From contig CAVXJH010000003.1 of assembly GCA_963762115.1 (NCBI GenBank), positions 399,493-463,492 of the forward strand: a stretch of DNA of 64,000 nt, in the 5' to 3' direction. Of this stretch, positions 15,515 to 56,352 are shown one piece after another. Numbering within the stretch: position 1 is the stretch's first letter; every line of letters starts with the position of its first letter. This DNA is from Candidatus Babeliales bacterium (GTDB lineage Bacteria > Babelota > Babeliae > Babelales > JANWKD01). The position numbers were made by a program, and so were the translations under genes. Below the pieces are notes generated by a model that searched no databases, had not been told where the DNA came from, and was given only the letters and a program-made list of their open reading frames with translations.

Positions 15515-17131
15515 TTGAAAAAGCACTATAAAAAATATACCTGCAACCTCTTCATGGTCATTTTTCTAATAATAAGCATATTTTCAACACATGGCATGGA
15601 AGAACTAACTTCAAATAAAACCATTGAGGATTATTATGGCAACCTTTTTACGGGAGACGCTTCAACACTAGAAAAATGCGGCGATTTTTTTCAAACCATT
15701 AGTGATTTTGAAAATGACTCTGATAATGTTTCATTACTCCAAAGTATGAGACATCAAATAGTTCATGCATCTCCTGATGAAAAAACCATCGAAGACTATC
15801 ATGGCATCATTTTTACCGCGCCCGCTTCAACAATAGAAAAATGTGGCTTATTTCAAAACATTGGTGAATTTGAAGATGATTTTGATTTTAAGTCACCAGA
15901 TATTTGGAATCAATTATTTAGTAGAAGATTTCCTAAACGTGATATCAGTTTTTTTAAAGCAACGGCTGCTGACATACCTCTTTCAAAAGAAATTTTAAAA
16001 GCTGCCTTTGAATGCATCACACCTTTTTTTGAAAAAGCTGAATCCCCTGAAGACAAAAGAGAAAAAAGTGAAAAAATTCACGCTATGCTCGAGTCAATTT
16101 CAAAAGATCAGATGCGATCAATTTTTTCTGTCATTAATTATCTTGGCCCCCAAAAAGAAAAAGTAGCTAAAAAACTTGCTCAACAAATGAAAGCGATAAT
16201 TCCATCAAATGAATTAAAAGAAGAAAATGAAATTGATTTTATCATTTTATCGAAGCTATATGACAAATCTATAGGTACAATTATCAAAAAAAAAGAAGAA
16301 ACGGCATATTTCGATTCGCTAAAGCCTAAAGAACTTAATTTCCAAAAAATGAATATCGAATCCCTGCAAGGTATCGAACATATTAAAATTGATAAAAATA
16401 ACATTAGTACGTTACGTCTTAGTAACAATAAATTAACAACCTTAAATATTAAAAATCTTTTAGAAATATTTCCCAACCTTAAACATATCGATGCTGAGCA
16501 TAATCTAATTACAAAGGCTATTTTCCCTGAACAATTACCTGCCAATATAAAAATATTTTTGTATCAAAATTTTATTAAGGAACTAATGCCTTTTTATACA
16601 AATGATAAGAATAAAATAGACTTAAGAAATAATCCTTTATCTGCCGATGCTCATGAAAACATTAAAAAAGCCTTAATTCCACCGTTTTTTAAAAGAAACC
16701 GACATCATTTATATTTTTTTAAAGAAGCCTCTAAATCATTTTTATTTAATAGTTTAACTGGCGCAGGAATATCTACATGCTTTATTTGGGCACCTATAGG
16801 AATTATTCGATCTTACAAATCTGAATATCCGGCCCCAAATACAATTACACAATCTATACTTTTCCATATATTGTTAGGCACAGTAAGCCCATCGTTTTAC
16901 CTCTTTTTAAAAACAGAACAGCTTTTGGGATTCGGAAATTCACCTTCATCAGCACATAAACATTTTTTACAATTTGTTGATAAATATGCTCTTGCAAGCA
17001 GCTTAATTATAGGAACTACATCTATTGCTTGGAAACTTTATAAAAATGAATTAACTGAATACAAAAAACACAAATACGTTCCAACAGCAAAGATTTTTAC
17101 TGGTGACTTCGATGAAAGTGCAGGCATATGA
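15515..17131 (+). CDS. Exported Skp1/BTB-like + LRR + TM protein (paralog 1)
   Basis: Signal then GMEE; LRRs LRLSNNKLTTL, IDAEHNLIT, IDLRNNPLS; C-terminal hydrophobic helices; start may be ATG 15554. Confidence 0.75.
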   Translation: MKKHYKKYTCNLFMVIFLIISIFSTHGMEELTSNKTIEDYYGNLFTGDASTLEKCGDFFQTISDFENDSDNVSLLQSMRHQIVHASPDEKTIEDYHGIIFTAPASTIEKCGLFQNIGEFEDDFDFKSPDIWNQLFSRRFPKRDISFFKATAADIPLSKEILKAAFECITPFFEKAESPEDKREKSEKIHAMLESISKDQMRSIFSVINYLGPQKEKVAKKLAQQMKAIIPSNELKEENEIDFIILSKLYDKSIGTIIKKKEETAYFDSLKPKELNFQKMNIESLQGIEHIKIDKNNISTLRLSNNKLTTLNIKNLLEIFPNLKHIDAEHNLITKAIFPEQLPANIKIFLYQNFIKELMPFYTNDKNKIDLRNNPLSADAHENIKKALIPPFFKRNRHHLYFFKEASKSFLFNSLTGAGISTCFIWAPIGIIRSYKSEYPAPNTITQSILFHILLGTVSPSFYLFLKTEQLLGFGNSPSSAHKHFLQFVDKYALASSLIIGTTSIAWKLYKNELTEYKKHKYVPTAKIFTGDFDESAGI

Positions 17132-18567
17132 ATAAAAAAATTAGAATACTTCATTTTTTGATTCTAGTTTTTGCTTTAGCAAATATTTCGTTCTTACAAA
17201 GCATGAGACATCAAATAGTTCATGCATCTCCTGATGAAAAAATTATCGAAGATTATCATGGCACCATTTTTACCGTGCCTGCTTCAACAATAGAAAAGTG
17301 TGGTGGATTTTTTCAAACCCTTGCTGATTTTGATACCTTTTATTTTGAAACATCAGATATTTGGGATCAATTATTTAGTAGAAGATTTCCTAAAAGCGAT
17401 ATCAGTTTTTTTCAAACGAAGGCAGCAGATACCCCTCTTTCAAAAGAAATTTTAAAAGCTACCTTTGAATGCATCACACCATTTTTTGAAGAAGTTAAAT
17501 TACCTGAAGAAAAAAGTGAAAAAATTAAAGCGATAATCGAATCAATTGATAAGGATCACATTCGATCAATTTTTTCTGTAATAAATTATCTTGGCCCCCA
17601 AAAAGAAAAAGTAGCTAAAAAATTAGCTCAACGAATGAAAGCGATAATTCCATACGATGAATTAAAAGAAGATAATGAAATTGATGTTATTGTTTTATCG
17701 GGAATATATGATAAAACAATACAAAAACTCCTTAAAAGGAAAAATCAATGGGGATTTTATAACCAACGGGTAGCCCAAGCTTTAGAGCTTAAAGGAATGA
17801 AGCTTGACAACTTGAAAGGAATTGAAAAGATAACAATTGAAAGTGTTAGGCTATTATATCTTAACGATAATGCATTAAGAACACTTGATATTGCGTATCT
17901 AAAAAAAAAATTTCCAAAACTTACTTACATCAATGCAAGCAATAACTGCATTACCACTCTCATTCTTCCCTCTAAATTACAAGAGCGTTTAACCATCGAA
18001 CTTAAAAACAATTTAATTAAAGAACTGCCTACCTTTTCATTAGATGGTGATTGTACAATTAACCTAAAAGGTAATCCTTTATCAGAAGATGCCCATAAAA
18101 AAATTAGAAAAGCATTAACACCACCATTTTTTATAAAAAATAGGCATCATTTAATTTTTTGGGCAAATAACGCAGGATATTTAATACGCGGAGTATTCTT
18201 TGGTGGACTCATTGGAATGCCATTAGGAACATCACTAGCAACTCTCTATTATTGCCCACGTACAACAATAATAGCAGGTATAGCACTTGGCTTGAGCGCA
18301 TCCACTTCATCAACAATAGCCCAAGCCATTCCTTATTTTATGATTGCTCCTTACCTGGCAATAAGGCTTAATCTTGACCCTGAGTTTTCAAATCATTGTA
18401 CTGGCTTTGTACCATTTGTTCATAAATTTACTTTAGGAAGCAGTTTGGCCTTAGGATTTATTTCACTCATAAGTGAAACGAAAAATATTGCACGAGACTA
18501 TGAACGAAATAAATACATTCAACGAGCAAAAATTTTCACTGATGCCGATGATTCTGCAAAAAATTAA
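17128..18567 (+). CDS. Exported Skp1/BTB-like + LRR + TM protein (paralog 2)
   Basis: Tandem paralog of 15515; LYLNDNALRTL, INASNNCIT, INLKGNPLS. Confidence 0.75.
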   Translation: MNKKIRILHFLILVFALANISFLQSMRHQIVHASPDEKIIEDYHGTIFTVPASTIEKCGGFFQTLADFDTFYFETSDIWDQLFSRRFPKSDISFFQTKAADTPLSKEILKATFECITPFFEEVKLPEEKSEKIKAIIESIDKDHIRSIFSVINYLGPQKEKVAKKLAQRMKAIIPYDELKEDNEIDVIVLSGIYDKTIQKLLKRKNQWGFYNQRVAQALELKGMKLDNLKGIEKITIESVRLLYLNDNALRTLDIAYLKKKFPKLTYINASNNCITTLILPSKLQERLTIELKNNLIKELPTFSLDGDCTINLKGNPLSEDAHKKIRKALTPPFFIKNRHHLIFWANNAGYLIRGVFFGGLIGMPLGTSLATLYYCPRTTIIAGIALGLSASTSSTIAQAIPYFMIAPYLAIRLNLDPEFSNHCTGFVPFVHKFTLGSSLALGFISLISETKNIARDYERNKYIQRAKIFTDADDSAKN

Positions 18568-23282: not shown

Positions 23283-24744
23283 CTACTCTTTACCCACATT
23301 TTTACTATAATTAACGAGATACAGAGTTAATATATCAAAAAAAGAAAAGTAAAAAATGATTAAAGAATTGTGGGCAGCAAATGAGACTAATCGTATGTCA
23401 TTAAAAGATAAACGCAGAAATGAAAGAGTTAGAATACTTCTAGAGGCCGTTGCCGATAGCCCATCAGCAAGCATTTTACAAGCTTGCAACGGAGAAAATG
23501 CACAAGCAAAAGGTGCTTATCGTTTTCTTGCCACAACAGAAATTGATGAACAAGATATTCTCGAAGGACATTATCAAGCAACCGTCGAAAGAGCTGAAAA
23601 TGCTGATGGAAAAGTCATTATTGTTAGCGATGGCATGGATGCATCTTTTAAAAATCTTAAAAAAACTTCAGGGTTAGGAACTCTATCTAATACAAAAAGT
23701 TCACTTGGAATAAAAGTTCAAAATACGTATGTATTTAGTGAAAATTTTATTCCATTAGGGCTAATAAATCAAAAGTATTGGATACGCAATAAAGAAGATT
23801 TTGGCAAAAAAAAACATAAGCTAAGGTTGCCTACAAAGGAAAAAGAATCTTATAATTGGATTGAATCAATTTATCAAATAGAAAAAAAGCTTCCTATAAA
23901 TAAAAGCTATTTATTTATAGGTGATGGTGGTGCCGATATTTATGATTTATTAACAGCAGAAAGGCGTGTAAATAGCGATTTACTCATTCATCTTGTGCAA
24001 AATAGAAATATACAGAACGAAGAAGAGCGTCTCTTTGAATTGCTGGAAAAACAATCAGTATTAGGCGTTATAACGAAAGAATTAGAACGTACAAAAACTC
24101 ATTCTAAGAGAACTGCAAAGTTAGCGATTAGAGTCAAAGAAGTCGAAATTTGTTCTCCTTTAAATCGAAAAAATGAAAAATTACCAACCATACATTTAAC
24201 AGCGATTTATGTGCAAGAAATAGAATATGACAACTCAGTAAATGATCCAATAGTATGGCGACTTATTACTACGATTAAAGTTCAATCATTGGAAGAAGCT
24301 GAAAAGCTTATTGCCCTTTACTCAAAACGTTGGCTCATTGAACGCTATCATTATATTTTAAAAGAAGGTTGTCGCATAGAAAAATTTCAAATGGAATCGG
24401 TTGATAACCTAAAAAGAACCTTGGCTGTTTACTCAATTGCTGCCTGGCGTTTAATTTATATCACTTATCTTGCAAGAATTAAACCTGATGCCCCATGTAA
24501 TTTAATTCTTACAACCGATGAAGCTGATGCGTTATATTGCACGCATCATAAAACTCTTACATTGCCCCCCAAATCTTTTTCTGTTAAAGAAGCAACTCAA
24601 ATGATAGCAAAATTAGGAGGTTTTCTTGGCAGGAAAAACGATAAAGATCCTGGTGCAAAAGTTTTGTGGCAGGGATTATTTCGGCTAGAAGCCATTACAC
24701 AAGCTTATCTTTTATTTAAAGAACTAAATGTGGGTAAAGAGTAG
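23283..24744 (+). mobile_element. IS4-family (IS50/Tn5-like) insertion sequence, 1462 bp
   Basis: Terminal IRs CTACTCTTTACCCACATTT; flanking direct repeat CATATACGCG at 23273-23282 and 24745-24754. Confidence 0.95.
23356..24744 (+). CDS. IS4 family (Tn5-like) DDE transposase
   Basis: DKRRNER, AYRFL, YSKRWLIERYHYILK (YREK), LGGFLGRKNDKDPG; stop codon lies in the right IR. Confidence 0.95.
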   Translation: MIKELWAANETNRMSLKDKRRNERVRILLEAVADSPSASILQACNGENAQAKGAYRFLATTEIDEQDILEGHYQATVERAENADGKVIIVSDGMDASFKNLKKTSGLGTLSNTKSSLGIKVQNTYVFSENFIPLGLINQKYWIRNKEDFGKKKHKLRLPTKEKESYNWIESIYQIEKKLPINKSYLFIGDGGADIYDLLTAERRVNSDLLIHLVQNRNIQNEEERLFELLEKQSVLGVITKELERTKTHSKRTAKLAIRVKEVEICSPLNRKNEKLPTIHLTAIYVQEIEYDNSVNDPIVWRLITTIKVQSLEEAEKLIALYSKRWLIERYHYILKEGCRIEKFQMESVDNLKRTLAVYSIAAWRLIYITYLARIKPDAPCNLILTTDEADALYCTHHKTLTLPPKSFSVKEATQMIAKLGGFLGRKNDKDPGAKVLWQGLFRLEAITQAYLLFKELNVGKE

Positions 24745-25098: not shown

Positions 25099-28115
<3,017 letters not shown>

Positions 28116-28171: not shown

Positions 28172-28199
28172 TTGACTTTTATCAATAATATTTTATAAT
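28172..28199 (+). promoter_or_regulatory. Sigma70-like promoter of the four-gene array
   Basis: TTGACT-N16-TATAAT. Confidence 0.55.
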
Positions 28200-28248: not shown

Positions 28249-29208
28249 ATGAAATCACTATTTCTTAAAGGTTTAAACCTGTTATTTGCAGTTGCACTCT
28301 TTGCAACAATAAATACATATGCAATGGAACAACAAGAAGAAGTTGCAGAGCCTATTTCTGCTCAAGCGCAAACTGATAATGTTATTGAACGTATGTATAA
28401 TGCTTTTAGCAAACAACTTGATGAAAGATTTCCAGAAGCACCTACAAATTTTTATGAAGCAATTGTACGCCTTCAAAGCATTGCAAAATTACTTGAAAAA
28501 TCTGAGATTGAACTCTGTGAAAATTTCAACGCTACACAAGAAAGTTGTATAATAAATGGCATTGAACAACCATATCATATGCTTCATCCAATTTTTAAAC
28601 ATTGGTTTCAAAGCGCTTGCAACAAAACTCTTCTTGAACATACAAAATCTATTGAAGCAATTGATCTAATATTTGATTTATTAAGTAAAATAACAACAGA
28701 GAACAATATCGAAAATTACAAAAAAGCAATTGAATCTTTGCCCCATGTTATTGCTGAATATATCAAAGAAGAATTTATTGAAATGCATGGCTGGAAATAT
28801 AAAAATAAAGGCTGGCTGACTGACTTTAAACCTCAAATGACTTTTGATGATAATGAAAACATGATAAATGTCGAATTTATTAAAGATAATTATCATGTTC
28901 GTGGATATTATTTGAAAGCAATCGATCAACCAATAATCGTTGTAATTAATTTAAATAATGGAACATATCCCTATATGGCGTTTAACGCTCATGCAACATT
29001 ACCACCAATGCTTTCAGACCTTTTGAACAATTTTTTTCATATTCCATTACCAGAAAGCGGTGTTTACCCTCCACTTTGGGAAAAACCAACATTTGAACAA
29101 TCATTAAAAAATTGTATCCAAGAAAACGCTAAAACATTAATAGGAAAAATAAAAAGACAAATCCAATCAACATTTTATTCTTTTAGCGAATTTATGGATC
29201 GATTTTAA
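28249..29208 (+). CDS. Exported array protein 1
   Basis: Signal + AMEQ; family domain PTNFYEAIVRLQSIA...PYHMLHPIFKHWF. Confidence 0.8.
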   Translation: MKSLFLKGLNLLFAVALFATINTYAMEQQEEVAEPISAQAQTDNVIERMYNAFSKQLDERFPEAPTNFYEAIVRLQSIAKLLEKSEIELCENFNATQESCIINGIEQPYHMLHPIFKHWFQSACNKTLLEHTKSIEAIDLIFDLLSKITTENNIENYKKAIESLPHVIAEYIKEEFIEMHGWKYKNKGWLTDFKPQMTFDDNENMINVEFIKDNYHVRGYYLKAIDQPIIVVINLNNGTYPYMAFNAHATLPPMLSDLLNNFFHIPLPESGVYPPLWEKPTFEQSLKNCIQENAKTLIGKIKRQIQSTFYSFSEFMDRF

Positions 29209-29263
29209 TGAAACATAATAAAAAAACTCTTATTTTTTAATTAGAACGTAGAGGAATATGTAT

Positions 29264-30220
29264 ATGAAATCACTATTTTTTAAAAGGTTAACACCTTTAT
29301 TACTCACCGTTACACTCTTTGCAGCAATAAATATACAAGCAATGGAACAAGAAGAAGGACAAGAACCTTTTTCTGCTCAAGAACAAAGCGCCAATGCCGA
29401 TAATGTTGTTGAACGTATATATAATGCTTTTAGCAAACAACTTGACGAAAGATTCACAGAATCACCTACAAATTTTCGCGAAGCAATTGCACAACTCAGA
29501 TGTATTGCACGATTACTTGAAGAATCTGAAGTTGAACTTCTTGAAGATTTCAACGTTACACAAGAAAACTGCACAATACATGGTATTAAACAACCATATC
29601 ATATGCTTCATCCAATTTTTAAACATTGGTTCAAAAATGCTTACGAAAAAATCCTTCTTGAACATCCAAAAGTTATTGAAGCTGCTGATGTAATTCTTGA
29701 AAGATTAAGTGAAAATGTTTCTCATGAAAATATGAATAATTATGATAAAGCAATTACAAATCTGCCAAAAATTGTTACTGAATGCATCCAAGATCAATTC
29801 ATTGATATACATGGTTGGCCACACAATATAAAACCCTCAATCACATTCAATGATTCGGGAGTAAAGCACATTTCATTTCTTCAAGATAATTATGTTTTTG
29901 AAGGATTTGGAACTGGTTGGATACATAAAACACGGTCACAACAAAGTCATTTAGAAAATATCAATAATAATCCTTCAGCATGGCTTAGCCGCAGCTCTAC
30001 ATTGGTTGATGGAAAATTAGCAACAGGAATTGCATACGAATTAGGATTAGCTGAAGAAATAAACGGAGATATTAAACCATTAAAAGCCTCTAATGATAAA
30101 GAAGAACCAAGTGGTGTATTACCACCTCTTTGGGAAAAACCAACATTTAAAGAAGCTCTTAAAAAACGAGCTGAAGAAAATAAATTAAAGAAAAATAGAA
30201 ATAGATGTATTATAAGTTAA
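29264..30220 (+). CDS. Exported array protein 2, C-terminal CaaX (CIIS)
   Basis: Paralog of 28249; ends KLKKNRNRCIIS. Confidence 0.8.
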   Translation: MKSLFFKRLTPLLLTVTLFAAINIQAMEQEEGQEPFSAQEQSANADNVVERIYNAFSKQLDERFTESPTNFREAIAQLRCIARLLEESEVELLEDFNVTQENCTIHGIKQPYHMLHPIFKHWFKNAYEKILLEHPKVIEAADVILERLSENVSHENMNNYDKAITNLPKIVTECIQDQFIDIHGWPHNIKPSITFNDSGVKHISFLQDNYVFEGFGTGWIHKTRSQQSHLENINNNPSAWLSRSSTLVDGKLATGIAYELGLAEEINGDIKPLKASNDKEEPSGVLPPLWEKPTFKEALKKRAEENKLKKNRNRCIIS

Positions 30221-30263: not shown

Positions 30264-32132
30264 ATGAAATTATATATTAAACAGGGCAAAAAGGCCTTAT
30301 TACTTTCTCTCGTATTATTTACCGGAATCACACTCAATGCAATGGAACAACAAGATAAGCCTGAATATAGTTCTTTCGTTGATAATCTAGAGATAGTACT
30401 AAAAAGAAATAACAAACAACTCTGCGCAAAGCTTCTTCATCATTTCAATGAAGAAATTGAACAAAAAGAAGTAATTGAACAAGTTTCTATAGTTGCAAAT
30501 TTAATACCATATGCTGCACAAAAAAGTAATCAAGTAACCTCTGTACTTTGCAATGCACTGGTAAAAATTGTCCAGGCTAACGACTCATTAGCCTCAATAA
30601 TTAAAGAAAAGATAAATCCTGTTATTCACACTTTAGTAGCACACCAAAGAAAAAAGGCTTTAAAAAAACTTCTTTGTATATTTGCTGATAACACTGAATC
30701 GGAAGAATATACAAGGATTAATCAAATTATACAAAGTAAGTTACAAAAAGGATTAACCGTATTTAATCCAGAAGAAAATTCTACCACAAAAGAAGCACTA
30801 AAATATATTTATTCTACTATTGATTTGATACAAGAATCGATATCAAACCCACAACGCACAGTAATATTCTGCAATATGTTGCTAGGTCATTTTATTAGCC
30901 AAGAAAAAAATTTCAGAACAGACATGCAAAAAATTATTTCTCCAATCATTCATCCTCTAATTCAAGCTAATAACATTGAAGCATTAAAACAAATTCGATA
31001 TATTTTCTCTGATTTTAAAGATAAAGATACACAAGAATACAAAATCATACATAAAGCAATTAAAAAATATAATTCAGTAATAAAATCCAAGCAAAATGAA
31101 CAGCTTGCAAAATTATCAGAAAAAAGTCCTCATGAAAAAGTTGCAACTGAAGATAACGATCAAGAATTAAACTTTGCTCGCACTGTTAGTACAAGGGAAA
31201 CTACCAATCCAAGTGCGACTACTTTTGAAAATCCAATTGATTTTATGAGATTACAAAAGGAATCTGCTGAACTTACTGGTGTTCCGCTCTCAGATGAAGA
31301 AGCTGATGCATTTTTGATTAGAATTTTAGAAGAACACATCGACAATCACCCTTCTTGCAAGAAAATACCAAAAACATTTTATGAAGCTTTAGTGCGTCTT
31401 CAATGCATTGCTCGTTTGTTTGATAAAACTCGCTTTTATATAGGTGATATGGAAATTACAGAGAATGATTGTGTGATTAATAACTTAGTTCTTCCTCATC
31501 ATATGACAAATAAAAGATTTAAACAGTGTTTTGATATTGTCAAAAATCGAACCGTACTTCTTTCCCATGAAAAATCTGTTGAAGCAATAAATATCATTCT
31601 TGAAAGCATCAGTAAAAAAGTAAAACCAGAAACGGCAGCCGAATATATAAAAGCAATTAATTGTTTACCCTCTTTTTTTTCTCATAACATTAAAAAGCAA
31701 TTTAATAGAATGATGTATCAAGAATTATATAATATTCCTTTGATAACAACGGGTTTAAATTTTATTGGTTCGTTTGTTAATTATGACATAGTAAAAACCA
31801 AAATTAAACCTTATGAAGTTATCTTCGATGAAGAAGACAGGATAACATCATTCAAATTTAAAAAATCTGGAATTAACGTTGAAATATCTAACATACATTG
31901 GATAGGACAGGATCCTTGGGGTAAAGCAGTTATGGGAAGTGAAACATGTTATGGTACTGATCTAAACAATTTACACACTCTTCTAAATAGAAAATTTGAG
32001 GGACGAGCAACATATTTTGATGAAAACGACTTTATTTGGCGACTAAATTTTGAAGAAATGTTACAAAAACGTGCTCATGAAAATGAAAACAAGACACAAG
32101 AAAAGCAACAATCAAAATGCATTATAAGTTAG
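30264..32132 (+). CDS. Exported array protein 3, mosaic, C-terminal CaaX (CIIS)
   Basis: Two helical repeats shared with protein 4, plus the PKTFYEALVRLQCIA domain shared with proteins 1 and 2; ends QSKCIIS. Confidence 0.8.
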   Translation: MKLYIKQGKKALLLSLVLFTGITLNAMEQQDKPEYSSFVDNLEIVLKRNNKQLCAKLLHHFNEEIEQKEVIEQVSIVANLIPYAAQKSNQVTSVLCNALVKIVQANDSLASIIKEKINPVIHTLVAHQRKKALKKLLCIFADNTESEEYTRINQIIQSKLQKGLTVFNPEENSTTKEALKYIYSTIDLIQESISNPQRTVIFCNMLLGHFISQEKNFRTDMQKIISPIIHPLIQANNIEALKQIRYIFSDFKDKDTQEYKIIHKAIKKYNSVIKSKQNEQLAKLSEKSPHEKVATEDNDQELNFARTVSTRETTNPSATTFENPIDFMRLQKESAELTGVPLSDEEADAFLIRILEEHIDNHPSCKKIPKTFYEALVRLQCIARLFDKTRFYIGDMEITENDCVINNLVLPHHMTNKRFKQCFDIVKNRTVLLSHEKSVEAINIILESISKKVKPETAAEYIKAINCLPSFFSHNIKKQFNRMMYQELYNIPLITTGLNFIGSFVNYDIVKTKIKPYEVIFDEEDRITSFKFKKSGINVEISNIHWIGQDPWGKAVMGSETCYGTDLNNLHTLLNRKFEGRATYFDENDFIWRLNFEEMLQKRAHENENKTQEKQQSKCIIS

Positions 32133-32170: not shown

Positions 32171-33007
32171 ATGAAATTATTTATAAAACAAGGTAAAAAC
32201 ACCTTATTACTTTCTCTCGTATTATTTACCGGAATCACGCTTCAGGCAATGGAACAACAAGGGAGCGAATACGGCTATTTAGTTGATACTCTTGATGCAG
32301 CAATGAAATCATCAAATCCCACTGCTTGCAAAGATCTTTTCGAAAGCTTTAGTAATGATCTTAACCAAAAAGATCCAATCGAACGAGCTGCTATTGTTGT
32401 TGGCTTAACACAAGAAGCAGCAGCGAAAAAAAATGAACAATTAACAGGGGTATTTTGCAATGCACTCGTTAGTATTTATAACACTAGCCCCGGAATAACA
32501 GAAGCAATGCAAGAAATAATAAGCCCTGTCATTCGTCCTTTGGCAGAGCACAAACAAATATCAGCATTGGGAAAAATTCACTGTATTTTTTCTAACAATA
32601 TTGAAAGCGAAGAATATAGACAAATTGATGAAGCAATTAAAAATAAATTGCACGGTAATACAACAGTAAATACTGATGAAGATGAAGCAATTGCAAGATT
32701 ATTACAAGAAGAAGTTCAAAGTCCTGATGACAATTTTGCACCTAAAGATAACGATCTCAACAGGGCACTAGCATTAAGTTTACAAACAGGCAGACAAGAT
32801 GACGAACAAGCAGAATTAGAAAAAGCACTGCGTGCAAGCAGATTTACCAACCCTAGCGCACCCGTACTAACAGACATCGAAGAAGATGATGCAGTATTAC
32901 GTATTGCACTCGCAGAAAGCTTACAAGTAAACACACCAAATACCAACTCAAATCCAAGCATCTGGAACAATCTCCGCAACATATTTTTAGACGGCTTTGG
33001 TAGTTAA
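32171..33007 (+). CDS. Exported array protein 4 with tandem ubiquitin-interacting motifs
   Basis: Start at ATG 32171 by homology with 30264; DLNRALALSL, ELEKALRASR, VLRIALAESL. Confidence 0.8.
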   Translation: MKLFIKQGKNTLLLSLVLFTGITLQAMEQQGSEYGYLVDTLDAAMKSSNPTACKDLFESFSNDLNQKDPIERAAIVVGLTQEAAAKKNEQLTGVFCNALVSIYNTSPGITEAMQEIISPVIRPLAEHKQISALGKIHCIFSNNIESEEYRQIDEAIKNKLHGNTTVNTDEDEAIARLLQEEVQSPDDNFAPKDNDLNRALALSLQTGRQDDEQAELEKALRASRFTNPSAPVLTDIEEDDAVLRIALAESLQVNTPNTNSNPSIWNNLRNIFLDGFGS

Positions 33008-33017
33008 TACTATTTCA

Positions 33018-33053
33018 ATGAACTGGTCATGCACCAATGTATGACCAGTTCAT
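33018..33053 (+). terminator. Long hairpin closing the array
   Basis: atgaactggtcatgca-ccaa-tgtatgaccagttcat. Confidence 0.65.
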
Positions 33054-33099
33054 GAACAAGAATCGTACAATACCAAAAAATATGATAGGCTAACCCATT

Positions 33100-54208: not shown

Positions 54209-55390
54209 TTAACAGATAACACGAACAACTTCTTCCAAGCTAATTATGCCGGCTTGTAGTTTTTCTCGTGCATCATGCAATAAAGGCTGCAAACCATCAG
54301 CAAGTGCCTGTTCTTGAATCGCCTCAAAAAGAGGATTGCGCACAATAAGTGTACGTAACGCGTTACTCATAATTAACAATTCAAAAATACCAATGCGCCC
54401 TTTATACCCAAGATTAAAACAGTGTGAACAGCCAAGACCTTTATAGAGTTTTTGCATATTCACCGCCAATCGTTCTAGTATTTTTAATTCTTGCTCATTT
54501 GGTTCTTGTTCAACACGACAATGTGTACAAATCTTGCGCACTAAACGTTGGGCAAGAACACCTGTCAATGAACTATTAATCAAGAATGGTTCAATGGCCA
54601 TATCCATTAAGCGCATAATGGTAGATGATGCATCATTGGTATGCAATGTGCTTAACACCAAGTGACCAGTTAGCGATGCTTCAATAGCAATACGCGCTGT
54701 TTGCTTATCACGAATTTCACCAATCATGGCAATATCAGGATCTTGTCGCAATAATGCGCGAATACCTCGTTCAAAAGTAAATCCTGCTTCAGGATGAATT
54801 TGGCCCTGCGTTATACCATCAATGTTATATTCAACAGGATCTTCTAGCGTGATAATATTTTTTTCAGCAGAATGTAATGCTGATAGCGTTGCATATAAGG
54901 TAGTCGTTTTTCCTGAACCGGTTGGCCCCGTTACTAAAAAAAATCCCTGCGCGCGAGCAATAAGATTTTTAAATTGTTCTAATATTTTTGGTTGTAACCC
55001 TAATTTTTCTAAAACAATAGTGTGATTTGTGCGATCCAAAATTCTAATAACTATTTTTTCGCCATAAATTGCAGGAAAGGTGGAAACGCGCAAATCAACC
55101 GATTTATCAGCAAGTTGTATGCGAAATTTTCCATCCTGAGGAATTCTTTTTTCTGCAATGTTGTTGTGAGCAAGAATCTTAATGCGCGAAATCACTTGTG
55201 CCGCACTCATTGCTTCTATCATGGGCTGATCATAAAGAGTACCATCAATGCGATAGCGAACCCTCAATCCCTTTTGCGTTGATTCTAAATGAATATCAGA
55301 TGCATCACGTTCAATTGCTAACGCAATAATATCATTAACACGATCAATAATTGATAAGGCAATAAAAGCTTGATTTTCGCGCTCCAACAT
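54209..55390 (-). CDS. GspE/PilB-family secretion/pilus ATPase lacking the N1 domain
   Basis: ASDIH, PQDG, TGPTGSGKTTT, EDPVE, LRQDPD, TGHLVLSTLH, tetra-Cys zinc site. Confidence 0.92.
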   Translation of the reverse strand: MLERENQAFIALSIIDRVNDIIALAIERDASDIHLESTQKGLRVRYRIDGTLYDQPMIEAMSAAQVISRIKILAHNNIAEKRIPQDGKFRIQLADKSVDLRVSTFPAIYGEKIVIRILDRTNHTIVLEKLGLQPKILEQFKNLIARAQGFFLVTGPTGSGKTTTLYATLSALHSAEKNIITLEDPVEYNIDGITQGQIHPEAGFTFERGIRALLRQDPDIAMIGEIRDKQTARIAIEASLTGHLVLSTLHTNDASSTIMRLMDMAIEPFLINSSLTGVLAQRLVRKICTHCRVEQEPNEQELKILERLAVNMQKLYKGLGCSHCFNLGYKGRIGIFELLIMSNALRTLIVRNPLFEAIQEQALADGLQPLLHDAREKLQAGIISLEEVVRVIC

Positions 55391-55398
55391 ACTCTTTT

Positions 55399-55950
55399 TT
55401 ACTCTTCTTCTTTATCAAGCTCTATTTCTTCTTGCGCCAGAGCTCGTGCTTCATCGCGCTCTTCTGCTTCAATATAATCAAAATCATCAGTCACTTGTAA
55501 AGAAGGATCATAAAATTCTTCTACCGTTTCTATAATATCTTCACCAATACCAACCATAAATTGAATATCGGACGACATATAATTACCAATATTAGGCAAC
55601 AATGAATCATCTTGCGGATCGGCAGCAACAACGACAAGCATGTTGTCATTCAATTCTTGCAAAGGAATAATTTCATTGCGAAGCAAAAAATCGCGAGGAA
55701 ATTTAATAACCAATGAATGATCAAAAAAATGACCTATCACATCAAATGATGGCACATTATAATAGGCACTTAATGCTTTTAATAAATCTTCTTTTTCAAC
55801 AAGTTCTTCCTGCAATAAAAAATTATCAAATTCATCTTCCGATTCTGCTTTAAATAATCTTTTTGCATCCTTTGATTCTTGAGGAGTAAAAACCTTATTT
55901 TTTTCTAAGATTGTACAAAGTCCGTCGACAAATTTATCGCCTTTTCTCAT
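55399..55950 (-). CDS. Stand-alone GspE/PilB N-terminal (T2SSE_N/MshEN-like) domain protein
   Basis: LLKALSAYYNVPSFD, FPRDFLLRNEIIPL, LVVVAADP. Confidence 0.75.
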   Translation of the reverse strand: MRKGDKFVDGLCTILEKNKVFTPQESKDAKRLFKAESEDEFDNFLLQEELVEKEDLLKALSAYYNVPSFDVIGHFFDHSLVIKFPRDFLLRNEIIPLQELNDNMLVVVAADPQDDSLLPNIGNYMSSDIQFMVGIGEDIIETVEEFYDPSLQVTDDFDYIEAEERDEARALAQEEIELDKEEE

Positions 55951-55959
55951 GCTATTTTC

Positions 55960-56352
55960 CTATCCAACTTTATAACCAATCAAGAAACCTACACTCGCGC
56001 TCAAAACAATCGGAATATTATTTTTCATCCAATCTAAATAGGCATTACCAACTGTTTGAAAAGTATCCGACTGCTGTATTCCTACCATTGTTTTCAATTT
56101 TATCATATCTATCGTTATTATTTGAAACGTATTAAGAGCATAAAGCGCTATACAAGAAATCACTATACTCAAAAATAAATAACGCATACACTTTTTGAAA
56201 AAAAAGCCAAAGAAAAAACCCGCACAAAGATATACCATTAAATTCATGACGCCGTTAAATGATAAATCAAATGATTTGATGAATTTTTCCAAATCAAAGG
56301 TAGATTTTATATGTTCAACCCAGCTTGTTTGCGCTTGTGTTTTGCTTAACAT
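55960..56352 (-). CDS. FUN14-like membrane protein
   Basis: GFFFGFFFKK, LYALNTFQIITIDM, GFLIGYK. Confidence 0.6.
   Translation of the reverse strand: MLSKTQAQTSWVEHIKSTFDLEKFIKSFDLSFNGVMNLMVYLCAGFFFGFFFKKCMRYLFLSIVISCIALYALNTFQIITIDMIKLKTMVGIQQSDTFQTVGNAYLDWMKNNIPIVLSASVGFLIGYKVG

Follow-up and report, generated by a model that had tools for sequence, protein, structure and literature searches.

A predicted Sec-exported Babeliales protein with a conserved array of motifs resembling ubiquitin-interacting motifs

The 64,000-nucleotide stretch analyzed here (the window; contig CAVXJH010000003.1, positions 399,493 to 463,492 of the forward strand) comes from a member of the Dependentiae/Babeliales, bacteria known to live as intracellular parasites of protists. 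Within it, gene D (positions 32171 to 33007, + strand, stop codon included) encodes a protein of 278 amino acids and is the last of four same-strand tandem paralogues, A to D. Its product combines a signal peptide, a helical domain (domain X), and a tail in which a sequence resembling the motif interacting with ubiquitin (MIU) precedes three stretches assigned by profile as ubiquitin-interacting motifs (UIMs). We propose, with moderate confidence, that gene D encodes a Sec-exported effector whose flexible tail, with one inverted and three forward UIM helices, would bind polyubiquitin or multiply ubiquitinated host proteins by avidity.

Motif array in the tail of gene D

An earlier note, made from the DNA letters, had described tandem ubiquitin-binding motifs (one MIU and three UIMs) in a bacterial exported protein. 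All four peptides are located where it placed them, between positions 32675 and 32926 of the + strand, inside the gene D open reading frame (ORF) at 32171 to 33007. The source lineage, Dependentiae, agrees with the description as bacterial, and a Sec-type signal peptide fits the description as exported, as judged by a heuristic. The first, MIU-like peptide (motif 0; DEDEAIARLLQEE, residues 169 to 181) occupies positions 32675 to 32713. It is followed on the same strand by UIM1 (KDNDLNRALALSLQ, residues 192 to 205) at 32744 to 32785, UIM2 (EQAELEKALRASR, residues 212 to 224) at 32804 to 32842, and UIM3 (EEDDAVLRIALAESLQ, residues 237 to 252) at 32879 to 32926.

The UIM consensus is given as X-Ac-Ac-Ac-X-Phi-X-X-Ala-Phi-X-X-Ser-X-X-Ac-X (PMC8273247). 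As the earlier note had claimed for the last three peptides, the core of this consensus, hydrophobic-x-x-Ala-hydrophobic-x-x-Ser, is found in each of them: L196-N-R-A199-L200-A-L-S203 in UIM1, L216-E-K-A219-L220-R-A-S223 in UIM2, and L243-R-I-A246-L247-A-E-S250 in UIM3. Two to four acidic residues occupy the six positions before each core. With cores beginning at residues 196, 216, and 243 of a single chain, the motifs are in tandem, taking this to mean at least two UIMs close together. The three cores and the inverted core of motif 0 span 84 residues.

Such a cluster is rarely produced by composition. A loose pattern (hydrophobic-x-x-A-x-x-x-S, with at least two acidic residues among the six preceding) matches three times in the 118-amino-acid tail. 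When the tail was shuffled 20,000 times with its composition preserved, 3 shuffles reached three matches; when the whole protein was shuffled as often, 9 did. The window has 77 stop-to-stop frames of 100 amino acids or more (21,616 residues), and in these the same pattern matches ten times: three times in gene D, once in paralogue C, and in six places scattered singly. Recent internal duplication was rejected as the origin of the motifs, since the DNA of the tail contains no tandem repeat, only matches of 12 to 15 nucleotides between acidic codons.

A Pfam UIM scan, the check named in the earlier note, places the tail above the curated cut-off, which is 21 bits for both profiles used (UIM, PF02809; UIM_2, PF23625). 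The 116-amino-acid tail scores 26.1 bits for UIM (E = 6.5e-6) and 25.5 bits for UIM_2, with two stretches matched. Taken alone, UIM1 scores 20.1 bits for UIM and 14.9 bits for UIM_2, and UIM3 scores 13.7 and 13.6 bits, respectively. Of 52 proteins of the window that were scanned (five at E <= 10 and 47 at E <= 0.001), gene D was the sole one to match Pfam UIM.

Comparison with solved structures points in the same direction. The best of the 12 matches of the tail (E <= 10) is the tandem UIM of ataxin-3 (2KLZ, E = 0.051), in a gapless alignment of 31 residues that runs from UIM1 into UIM2, with 15 residues identical by our own count; two S5a entries are also among the 12. The core-to-core spacing from UIM1 to UIM2 is 20 residues in ataxin-3, equal to that in gene D. 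When the family profile was compared with solved structures (E <= 10), seven of the eight matches were UIM proteins (ataxin-3, STAM2, Vps27p, S5a twice, RAP80, and ZFAND2B) and the eighth was a ribosomal protein. The S5a (two entries), RAP80, and ZFAND2B constructs are presumed to be UIM regions. The weight of this comparison lies in the enrichment for UIM proteins and in the shared spacing, not in single E-values. By profile, the three C-terminal motifs are assigned as UIMs.

The AlphaFold2 model of gene D, in which the tail has a predicted local distance difference test (pLDDT) score below 50, contains tail helices at residues 168 to 179, 195 to 204, 212 to 222, and 241 to 250, which fall exactly on the four motifs. 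A short helix in an otherwise disordered region is the usual setting of UIMs. Motif 0 is delineated by conservation and a model helix. UIM1 is delineated by Pfam, conservation, a helix, and the ataxin-3 alignment; UIM2 by the core consensus, a helix, and the same alignment; and UIM3 by both Pfam profiles, conservation, and a helix.

Conservation of the array among relatives

Searched exhaustively with HMMER (E <= 0.001), 1.84 billion representative proteins yielded nine family representatives, namely the gene D query, paralogue C (P0003), and seven others. A word-indexed search of 5.8 billion clusters returned only the query and P0002, the gene D orthologue (61% identical). In a search of GTDB species representatives with a three-sequence alignment, 26 pattern matches included no relatives, and the family was not found there.

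Five relatives (P0002, P0004, P0006, P0007, and P0009; 33 to 61% identity) have the same layout of signal peptide, domain X, and motif array as gene D, and the array is kept in all five; P0008 is a domain X fragment of 128 amino acids. Motif 0 and at least two UIM cores are present in each of the six layout members (gene D plus these five). At E <= 1, Pfam UIM_2 is found in four of the six and UIM in two, with best E-values of 1.7e-5 and 3.1e-5. Five tail columns are invariant in all six members (D169, D171, A175, S203, and L251), and position 174 is Ile or Leu throughout. Q179 is kept in five of six members, as are A199, A246, and S250. Identity to gene D amounts to 52% in motif 0, 41% in UIM1, 39% in UIM3, and 28% in UIM2, compared to 26% in the linkers. 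UIM2 is conserved no better than the linkers in the MAFFT alignment, which misplaces it in two members. Because motif 0, UIM1, and UIM3 are more identical than the linkers, tail conservation sits on the UIM-diagnostic residues, UIM2 excepted.

A second acidic motif, D-Q-L-T-D-E-[ED]-L-x-Q-x-x-E-x-L-[HN]-x-S, sits between the UIMs of P0007 (once) and P0009 (twice) and does not occur in gene D.

Motif 0 reads as MIU-like by eye. Its residues run in reverse relative to a UIM, with Asp171 at Ala-4 (where a UIM has Ser at Ala+4), Ala175, Leu178 at Ala+3, Gln179, and two Glu. The resulting pattern, D171-x-x-I-A175-x-x-L178-Q179-E-E, matches the inverted consensus by eye; the detailed MIU consensus used for this comparison is attributed to Penengo et al. 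2006. Motif 0 has L178-Q179, and in the canonical MIU a Leu-Gln pair is described as "highly conserved" (PMC5824887). On the other hand, motif 0 differs from the MIUs of Rabex-5, RNF168, and ZUFSP in having no profile or structure-search match. There is no Pfam match, and a 24-amino-acid piece compared with solved structures gave one unrelated match, a response regulator (E = 1.6), with neither Rabex-5 nor RNF168 found. Motif 0 may instead derive from a UIM or be two-faced, because its helix also carries Ala in the forward UIM register in four of six members and forms a full forward UIM in P0006 (LAQALEAS).

Signal peptide, domain X, and C-terminal helix

The gene D start was placed at the ATG at 32171, not at 32117 where the ORF list begins the frame, because the resulting N-terminus (MKLFIKQGKN...) matches that of paralogue C (MKLYIKQGKK...). 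An antisense ORF of 88 amino acids overlapping gene D (32716 to 32982) is without support.

Residues 1 to 26 (MKLFIKQGKN-LLLSLVLFTGITL-QA / ME...; 32171 to 32248, + strand) form a predicted Sec-type signal peptide. The basic, hydrophobic, and small-residue cleavage regions expected of a Sec-exported protein are all found by heuristic: a basic MKLFIKQGK, 13 hydrophobic residues (H = 2.32 by our own hydrophobicity heuristic), and L-Q-A/M-E. Cleavage is predicted after Ala26, with this small residue at -1, which would leave a mature N-terminus starting with Met-Glu.

Domain X (residues ~33 to 162; 32267 to 32656, + strand) is modeled as an all-alpha domain of ~130 amino acids. The AlphaFold2 model, built from a 6-row alignment, has a mean pLDDT of 54.1; residues 33 to 162 form seven helices with 10-residue block means of 67 to 85, and residues 1 to 32 and 163 to 278 score below 50. 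The domain is common to gene D, paralogue C (which has two copies), and P0004 to P0009. It has no Pfam or NCBIfam family, and an NCBIfam scan of the four paralogues gave nothing near the cut-offs. The gene D model had no match among solved structures at E <= 0.001, the best (0.12) being to helical repeats of the tetratricopeptide, armadillo, or designed kind, so that nothing backs the idea of a VHS- or ENTH-like domain X. A Pfam search of gene D for Josephin, ENTH, VHS, and VWA domains found none even at E <= 10. In the ESM Atlas, no usable match was found for the whole protein, and the best for domain X reached 0.79, under the lead threshold of 0.8. On the model, domain X is taken as a lineage-specific helical repeat or domain.

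The protein ends in a predicted amphipathic helix (residues 262 to 278, ..NPSIWNNLRNIFLDGFGS; 32954 to 33004, + strand), recognized from conservation and from a model helix at residues 264 to 276, with a hydrophobic moment of 0.47. It is kept in P0002, P0004, and P0009, including its G-[FY]-G-S end. In gene D, the C-terminus reads ...DGFGS and is not a CaaX box.

In 10 of 53 window ORFs, a Met-Glu pair stands precisely where the signal-peptide-like segment ends, at residues 19 to 29 and after a small residue, in forms such as ..QA/ME, ..FG/ME, and ..HG/ME. The genes concerned start at 15515, 27522 (- strand), 28249, 29258, 30264, 32171, 38410, 43992, 46688, and 48500; nine were flagged by script and 48500 was added by eye. 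Given a background of 20 Met-Glu pairs in 15,433 residues, ~0.8 would be expected at the junctions, compared to the 10 observed. The junction also occurs in the relatives P0004, P0006, P0007, P0009, P0131, and P0133. Among its possible meanings are a mature N-terminus mimicking that of a eukaryotic cytosolic protein, an alternative start inside the frame, and a sorting signal. Literature listings on a signal-peptide motif in Dependentiae contained nothing relevant.

Four-gene cluster and CaaX boxes

The three genes upstream of gene D lie on the same strand, with gaps of 38 to 49 nucleotides between the four. Paralogue A (28249 to 29208, + strand) consists of a signal peptide and a second domain, Y, and has no CaaX box. 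Paralogue B (29258 to 30220, + strand; likely start ATG 29264) has a signal peptide, domain Y, a basic stretch, and the CaaX box CIIS. Paralogue C (30264 to 32132, + strand) has a signal peptide, two copies of domain X, a linker, and domain Y, and it also ends in a basic stretch followed by CIIS. Ahead of paralogue A, a match of 11 of 12 positions to the sigma-70 promoter consensus (TTGACT-16-TATAAT; 28172 to 28199, + strand) is the best in the window. Directly after the gene D stop, positions 33010 to 33060 (+ strand) form a predicted stem-loop with a 15-bp perfect core (-26.3 kcal/mol; z = -7.2; none of 200 shuffles as stable). It is followed by no T-run, hence its absence from the terminator scan, and likely marks the end of a four-gene transcript.

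The earlier note had also seen a degenerate motif copy in its protein 3, which is paralogue C. This remnant (...DNDQELNFARTVS...) exists in the linker and fits the loose pattern; it has no Pfam UIM match at E <= 10 and is not found in the orthologue P0005.

CaaX boxes end five of the seven domain Y proteins: paralogues B and C, P0005 (CGIS; orthologue of C), and the orthologues of B, P0131 (CIVS) and P0133 (CIIS). The remaining two, paralogue A and P0132, represent a single gene of the window. Prenylation takes place in the cytosol of eukaryotes, and a CaaX box is useful only where host prenyltransferases reach; Ser at position X favors farnesylation. Because the boxes are conserved and the modification is eukaryotic and cytosolic, they are the best evidence here that the paralogue family probably meets the host cytosol. 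They further suggest host prenylation of Sec-exported Dependentiae proteins.

Domain Y matches no known family, and its model (paralogue B, 6-row alignment) has a mean pLDDT of 44.7 and is unusable. Five invariant residues (Cys103, Pro111, His113, Lys120, and Glu139 in paralogue B numbering) might mark an active site. As X and Y are fused in paralogue C and might bind in trans, a complex of domain X (gene D residues 28 to 165) with paralogue B (residues 27 to 318) was predicted; the score of 0.00 against a mark of 0.32, without controls, speaks neither for nor against binding.

Interpretation of the array

From the motifs, profile scores, conservation, predicted helices, signal-peptide-like N-terminus, lineage, and paralogue cluster, we infer the following course of events. 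Gene D would be exported by its cleavable Sec signal peptide and would then reach the host cell. Each helix would make weak contact with the hydrophobic Ile44 patch of a single ubiquitin, and the array on its flexible linkers would thereby bind polyubiquitin chains, or cargo carrying several ubiquitins, with avidity. Through domain X or the C-terminal helix, the bound material may be tied to another partner or to a membrane, and host ubiquitin conjugates could as a result be masked, re-routed, or recruited. Delivery to the host cytosol is proposed because the neighboring paralogues carry conserved CaaX boxes, not from gene D itself. A rigid ruler of the RAP80 type, specific for K63 or another linkage, is unlikely because the linkers contain Gly and Pro. 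A shield against xenophagy is no more than conceivable.

Several points weigh against this proposal. Acidic, Ala/Leu-rich amphipathic helices can mimic the UIM motif. The whole gene D protein scores 20.5 bits for Pfam UIM, just below the cut-off of 21, and 21.0 bits for UIM_2, at the cut-off; neither UIM2 nor motif 0 taken alone has a Pfam UIM or UIM_2 score. Each solved-structure match is individually non-significant (E of 0.05 to 0.5). The C-terminal acidic residue of the UIM consensus is absent from all three UIMs, and the motif helices are of low confidence because the tail pLDDT lies below 50. With nine representatives among 1.84 billion proteins, the family is tiny. Finally, gene D itself lacks the CaaX box of its neighbors, and no route from periplasm to host cytosol was seen in the window, where only a type II/IV-pilus-type ATPase gene is present.

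Several of these points would also fit a tail with no ubiquitin role at all. The borderline Pfam scores and the individually non-significant structure matches could then reflect an acidic, partly disordered, helix-forming tail of a periplasmic or surface protein, its Ala and Ser residues conserved for a bacterial partner or for the paralogues. A signal peptide alone leads only to the periplasm, and the window revealed no system for delivery to the host. However, such a tail would have to account for three cores and an inverted core within 84 residues, a clustering reached by 3 of 20,000 shuffles, and for diagnostic residues conserved among proteins of 33 to 61% identity. The prevalence of UIM proteins among the family-profile structure matches (seven of eight) and the CaaX boxes of the sister paralogues also argue against it, and we regard it as unlikely.

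A bolder version of the ubiquitin-binding proposal would treat the whole cluster as a Dependentiae-specific effector toolkit of interchangeable modules (X, Y, UIM array, and CaaX), whose products would depend on Sec to get into the host cytosol, with no type III or type IV injection. Gene D would be its polyubiquitin receptor, with the ataxin-3 spacing either captured from a eukaryote or converged upon, and the Met-Glu junction would be a second, undescribed signal, perhaps a mature N-terminus mimicking that of a eukaryotic cytosolic protein or a host-translocation tag. We consider this combination decidedly unlikely as a whole.

The helices might also bind host ATG8-family proteins through a UIM-docking site, instead of or besides ubiquitin, and so act directly on autophagy. 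Ubiquitin-like autophagy proteins are described as having a UIM-recruiting interface (PMC8273247, citing Marshall et al. 2019), so that the same motif evidence serves this case equally, and nothing here separates ATG8 from ubiquitin. Yet the closest sequence matches of the array (ataxin-3, S5a, Vps27, and RAP80) are ubiquitin binders, and no motif of the LC3-interacting region or Atg8-interacting motif (LIR/AIM) type was seen in gene D; binding to ATG8 seems to us very unlikely. Action of the UIMs in cis, recruiting host ubiquitination machinery for coupled mono-ubiquitination of the effector itself and thereby controlling its sorting, turnover, or localization, can draw on the [quoted passage not shown] ascribed to the UIM (PMC2951365) and on the lysines that flank the gene D array, but it still requires ubiquitin binding, thus refining the favored explanation more than competing with it, and four motifs exceed its needs, so we give it little credence.

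Other features of the window

The window has a GC content of 30 to 38%. The nearest relatives of its GyrB are 73 to 95% identical, with P0012 at 95%; among at least 120 proteins listed, all nine that carry an organism name (68 to 72% identity) belong to Candidatus Dependentiae or Candidatus Babeliales, which places the window in this lineage. Among GTDB species representatives, a GyrB scan gave 80 loci of 48 to 60% identity spread over many phyla and did not place the organism, and the genome of the window was not found there. The cultured Dependentiae member described in PMC6561590 is an intracellular pathogen of a protist with 33.7% GC; it relies on Sec, and 44% of its proteins carry signal sequences. 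That genome paper places its emphasis on ankyrin repeats and on a secretome whose function is unknown. By our own crude test, 29 of 53 window ORFs have a signal-peptide-like N-terminus, and two signal peptidase I genes lie within the window, which fits the picture of Sec-reliant Dependentiae rich in signal sequences.

Several other genes encode proteins with eukaryote-type domains. A PLA2_B lysophospholipase (4184 to 6226, - strand; E = 9.5e-29), a WD40-like beta-propeller protein (38410 to 39933), and a leucine-rich repeat (LRR) protein (17128 to 18567) have signal-peptide-like N-termini; a FUN14 protein (55960 to 56352, - strand) does not. From their domains, these four genes are further candidates for host interaction. 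The type II/IV-pilus ATPase (54209 to 55950, - strand) appears as two ORFs, one with MshEN (55399 to 55950) and one with the T2SSE ATPase (54209 to 55390), and is either split or naturally two genes. A Tn5/IS4-type transposase (23356 to 24744; Tnp_DNA_bind, DDE_Tnp_1, and Dimer_Tnp_Tn5) is located 3.5 kb upstream of the cluster, just before gyrB (25111 to 27549). In addition, a small signal-peptide protein (42050 to 42592) opens with tandem AKLGYPTYT repeats.

Comparison with known systems

Dependentiae are widespread and almost uncultured protist parasites whose host-manipulation proteins are essentially uncharacterized. Host ubiquitin is a conserved arm of eukaryotic cell-autonomous defense, and a conserved array of canonical UIMs, if true, would offer a concrete way, cheap to test, of learning how Dependentiae handle it. 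The CaaX paralogues and the Met-Glu junction raise the further question by which route Sec-exported Dependentiae proteins reach the host cytosol. In the open-access literature searched, the precedents for a UIM in bacteria were mycobacterial PtpA and PtpB, each with a single UIM-like region, and a search combining UIM, eukaryotic-like, amoeba, and ubiquitin found nothing. Among the open-access papers listed on Dependentiae and ubiquitin, titles and abstract openings contained nothing relevant, and PMC6561590 names ubiquitin only in its references. Database annotations of bacterial UIM matches may well exist.

The array most closely resembles those of the eukaryotic tandem-UIM receptors (ataxin-3, S5a/Rpn10, Vps27/Hrs/STAM, epsin, and RAP80), which likewise carry short UIM helices on a flexible region behind a folded domain and share the core hydrophobic-x-x-A-hydrophobic-x-x-S after acidic residues. 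The UIMs that ataxin-3 carries in tandem are reported to bind di-ubiquitin cooperatively via their linker (PMC2951365). In contrast to these receptors, gene D has a bacterial Sec signal peptide, and its UIMs lack the C-terminal acidic residue of the eukaryotic consensus. Beyond the motifs, it has no homology to eukaryotic UIM proteins, and domain X has no VHS, ENTH, Josephin, or VWA match.

Among bacterial proteins, UIM-like regions of the Mycobacterium tuberculosis phosphatases PtpB (PMC12560355) and PtpA (PMC5048167) are reported to bind host ubiquitin. Like gene D, these are secreted proteins with a UIM-type region. However, each has a single non-canonical UIM-like stretch within an enzyme, for which ubiquitin is an activator, whereas gene D has an array of canonical motifs and no recognizable enzyme domain. 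The Legionella effectors AnkB and PelC/PelE are described as anchored to the vacuole by host farnesylation of a CaaX box (PMC2916131, PMC13081727). They resemble paralogues B and C in their C-terminal basic stretch and C-a-a-X; unlike these, they lack a Sec signal peptide and depend on a type IV system, and gene D itself has no CaaX box. A ubiquitin-binding module is also described in OtDUB of Orientia tsutsugamushi, an obligately intracellular bacterium (PMC7214410). That module is a novel folded high-affinity domain beside a deubiquitylase, in contrast to an array of short linear motifs. Intracellular bacteria are well known to mimic modules of the eukaryotic ubiquitin system, and gene D would be a case of eukaryote-like motif mimicry already known in kind.

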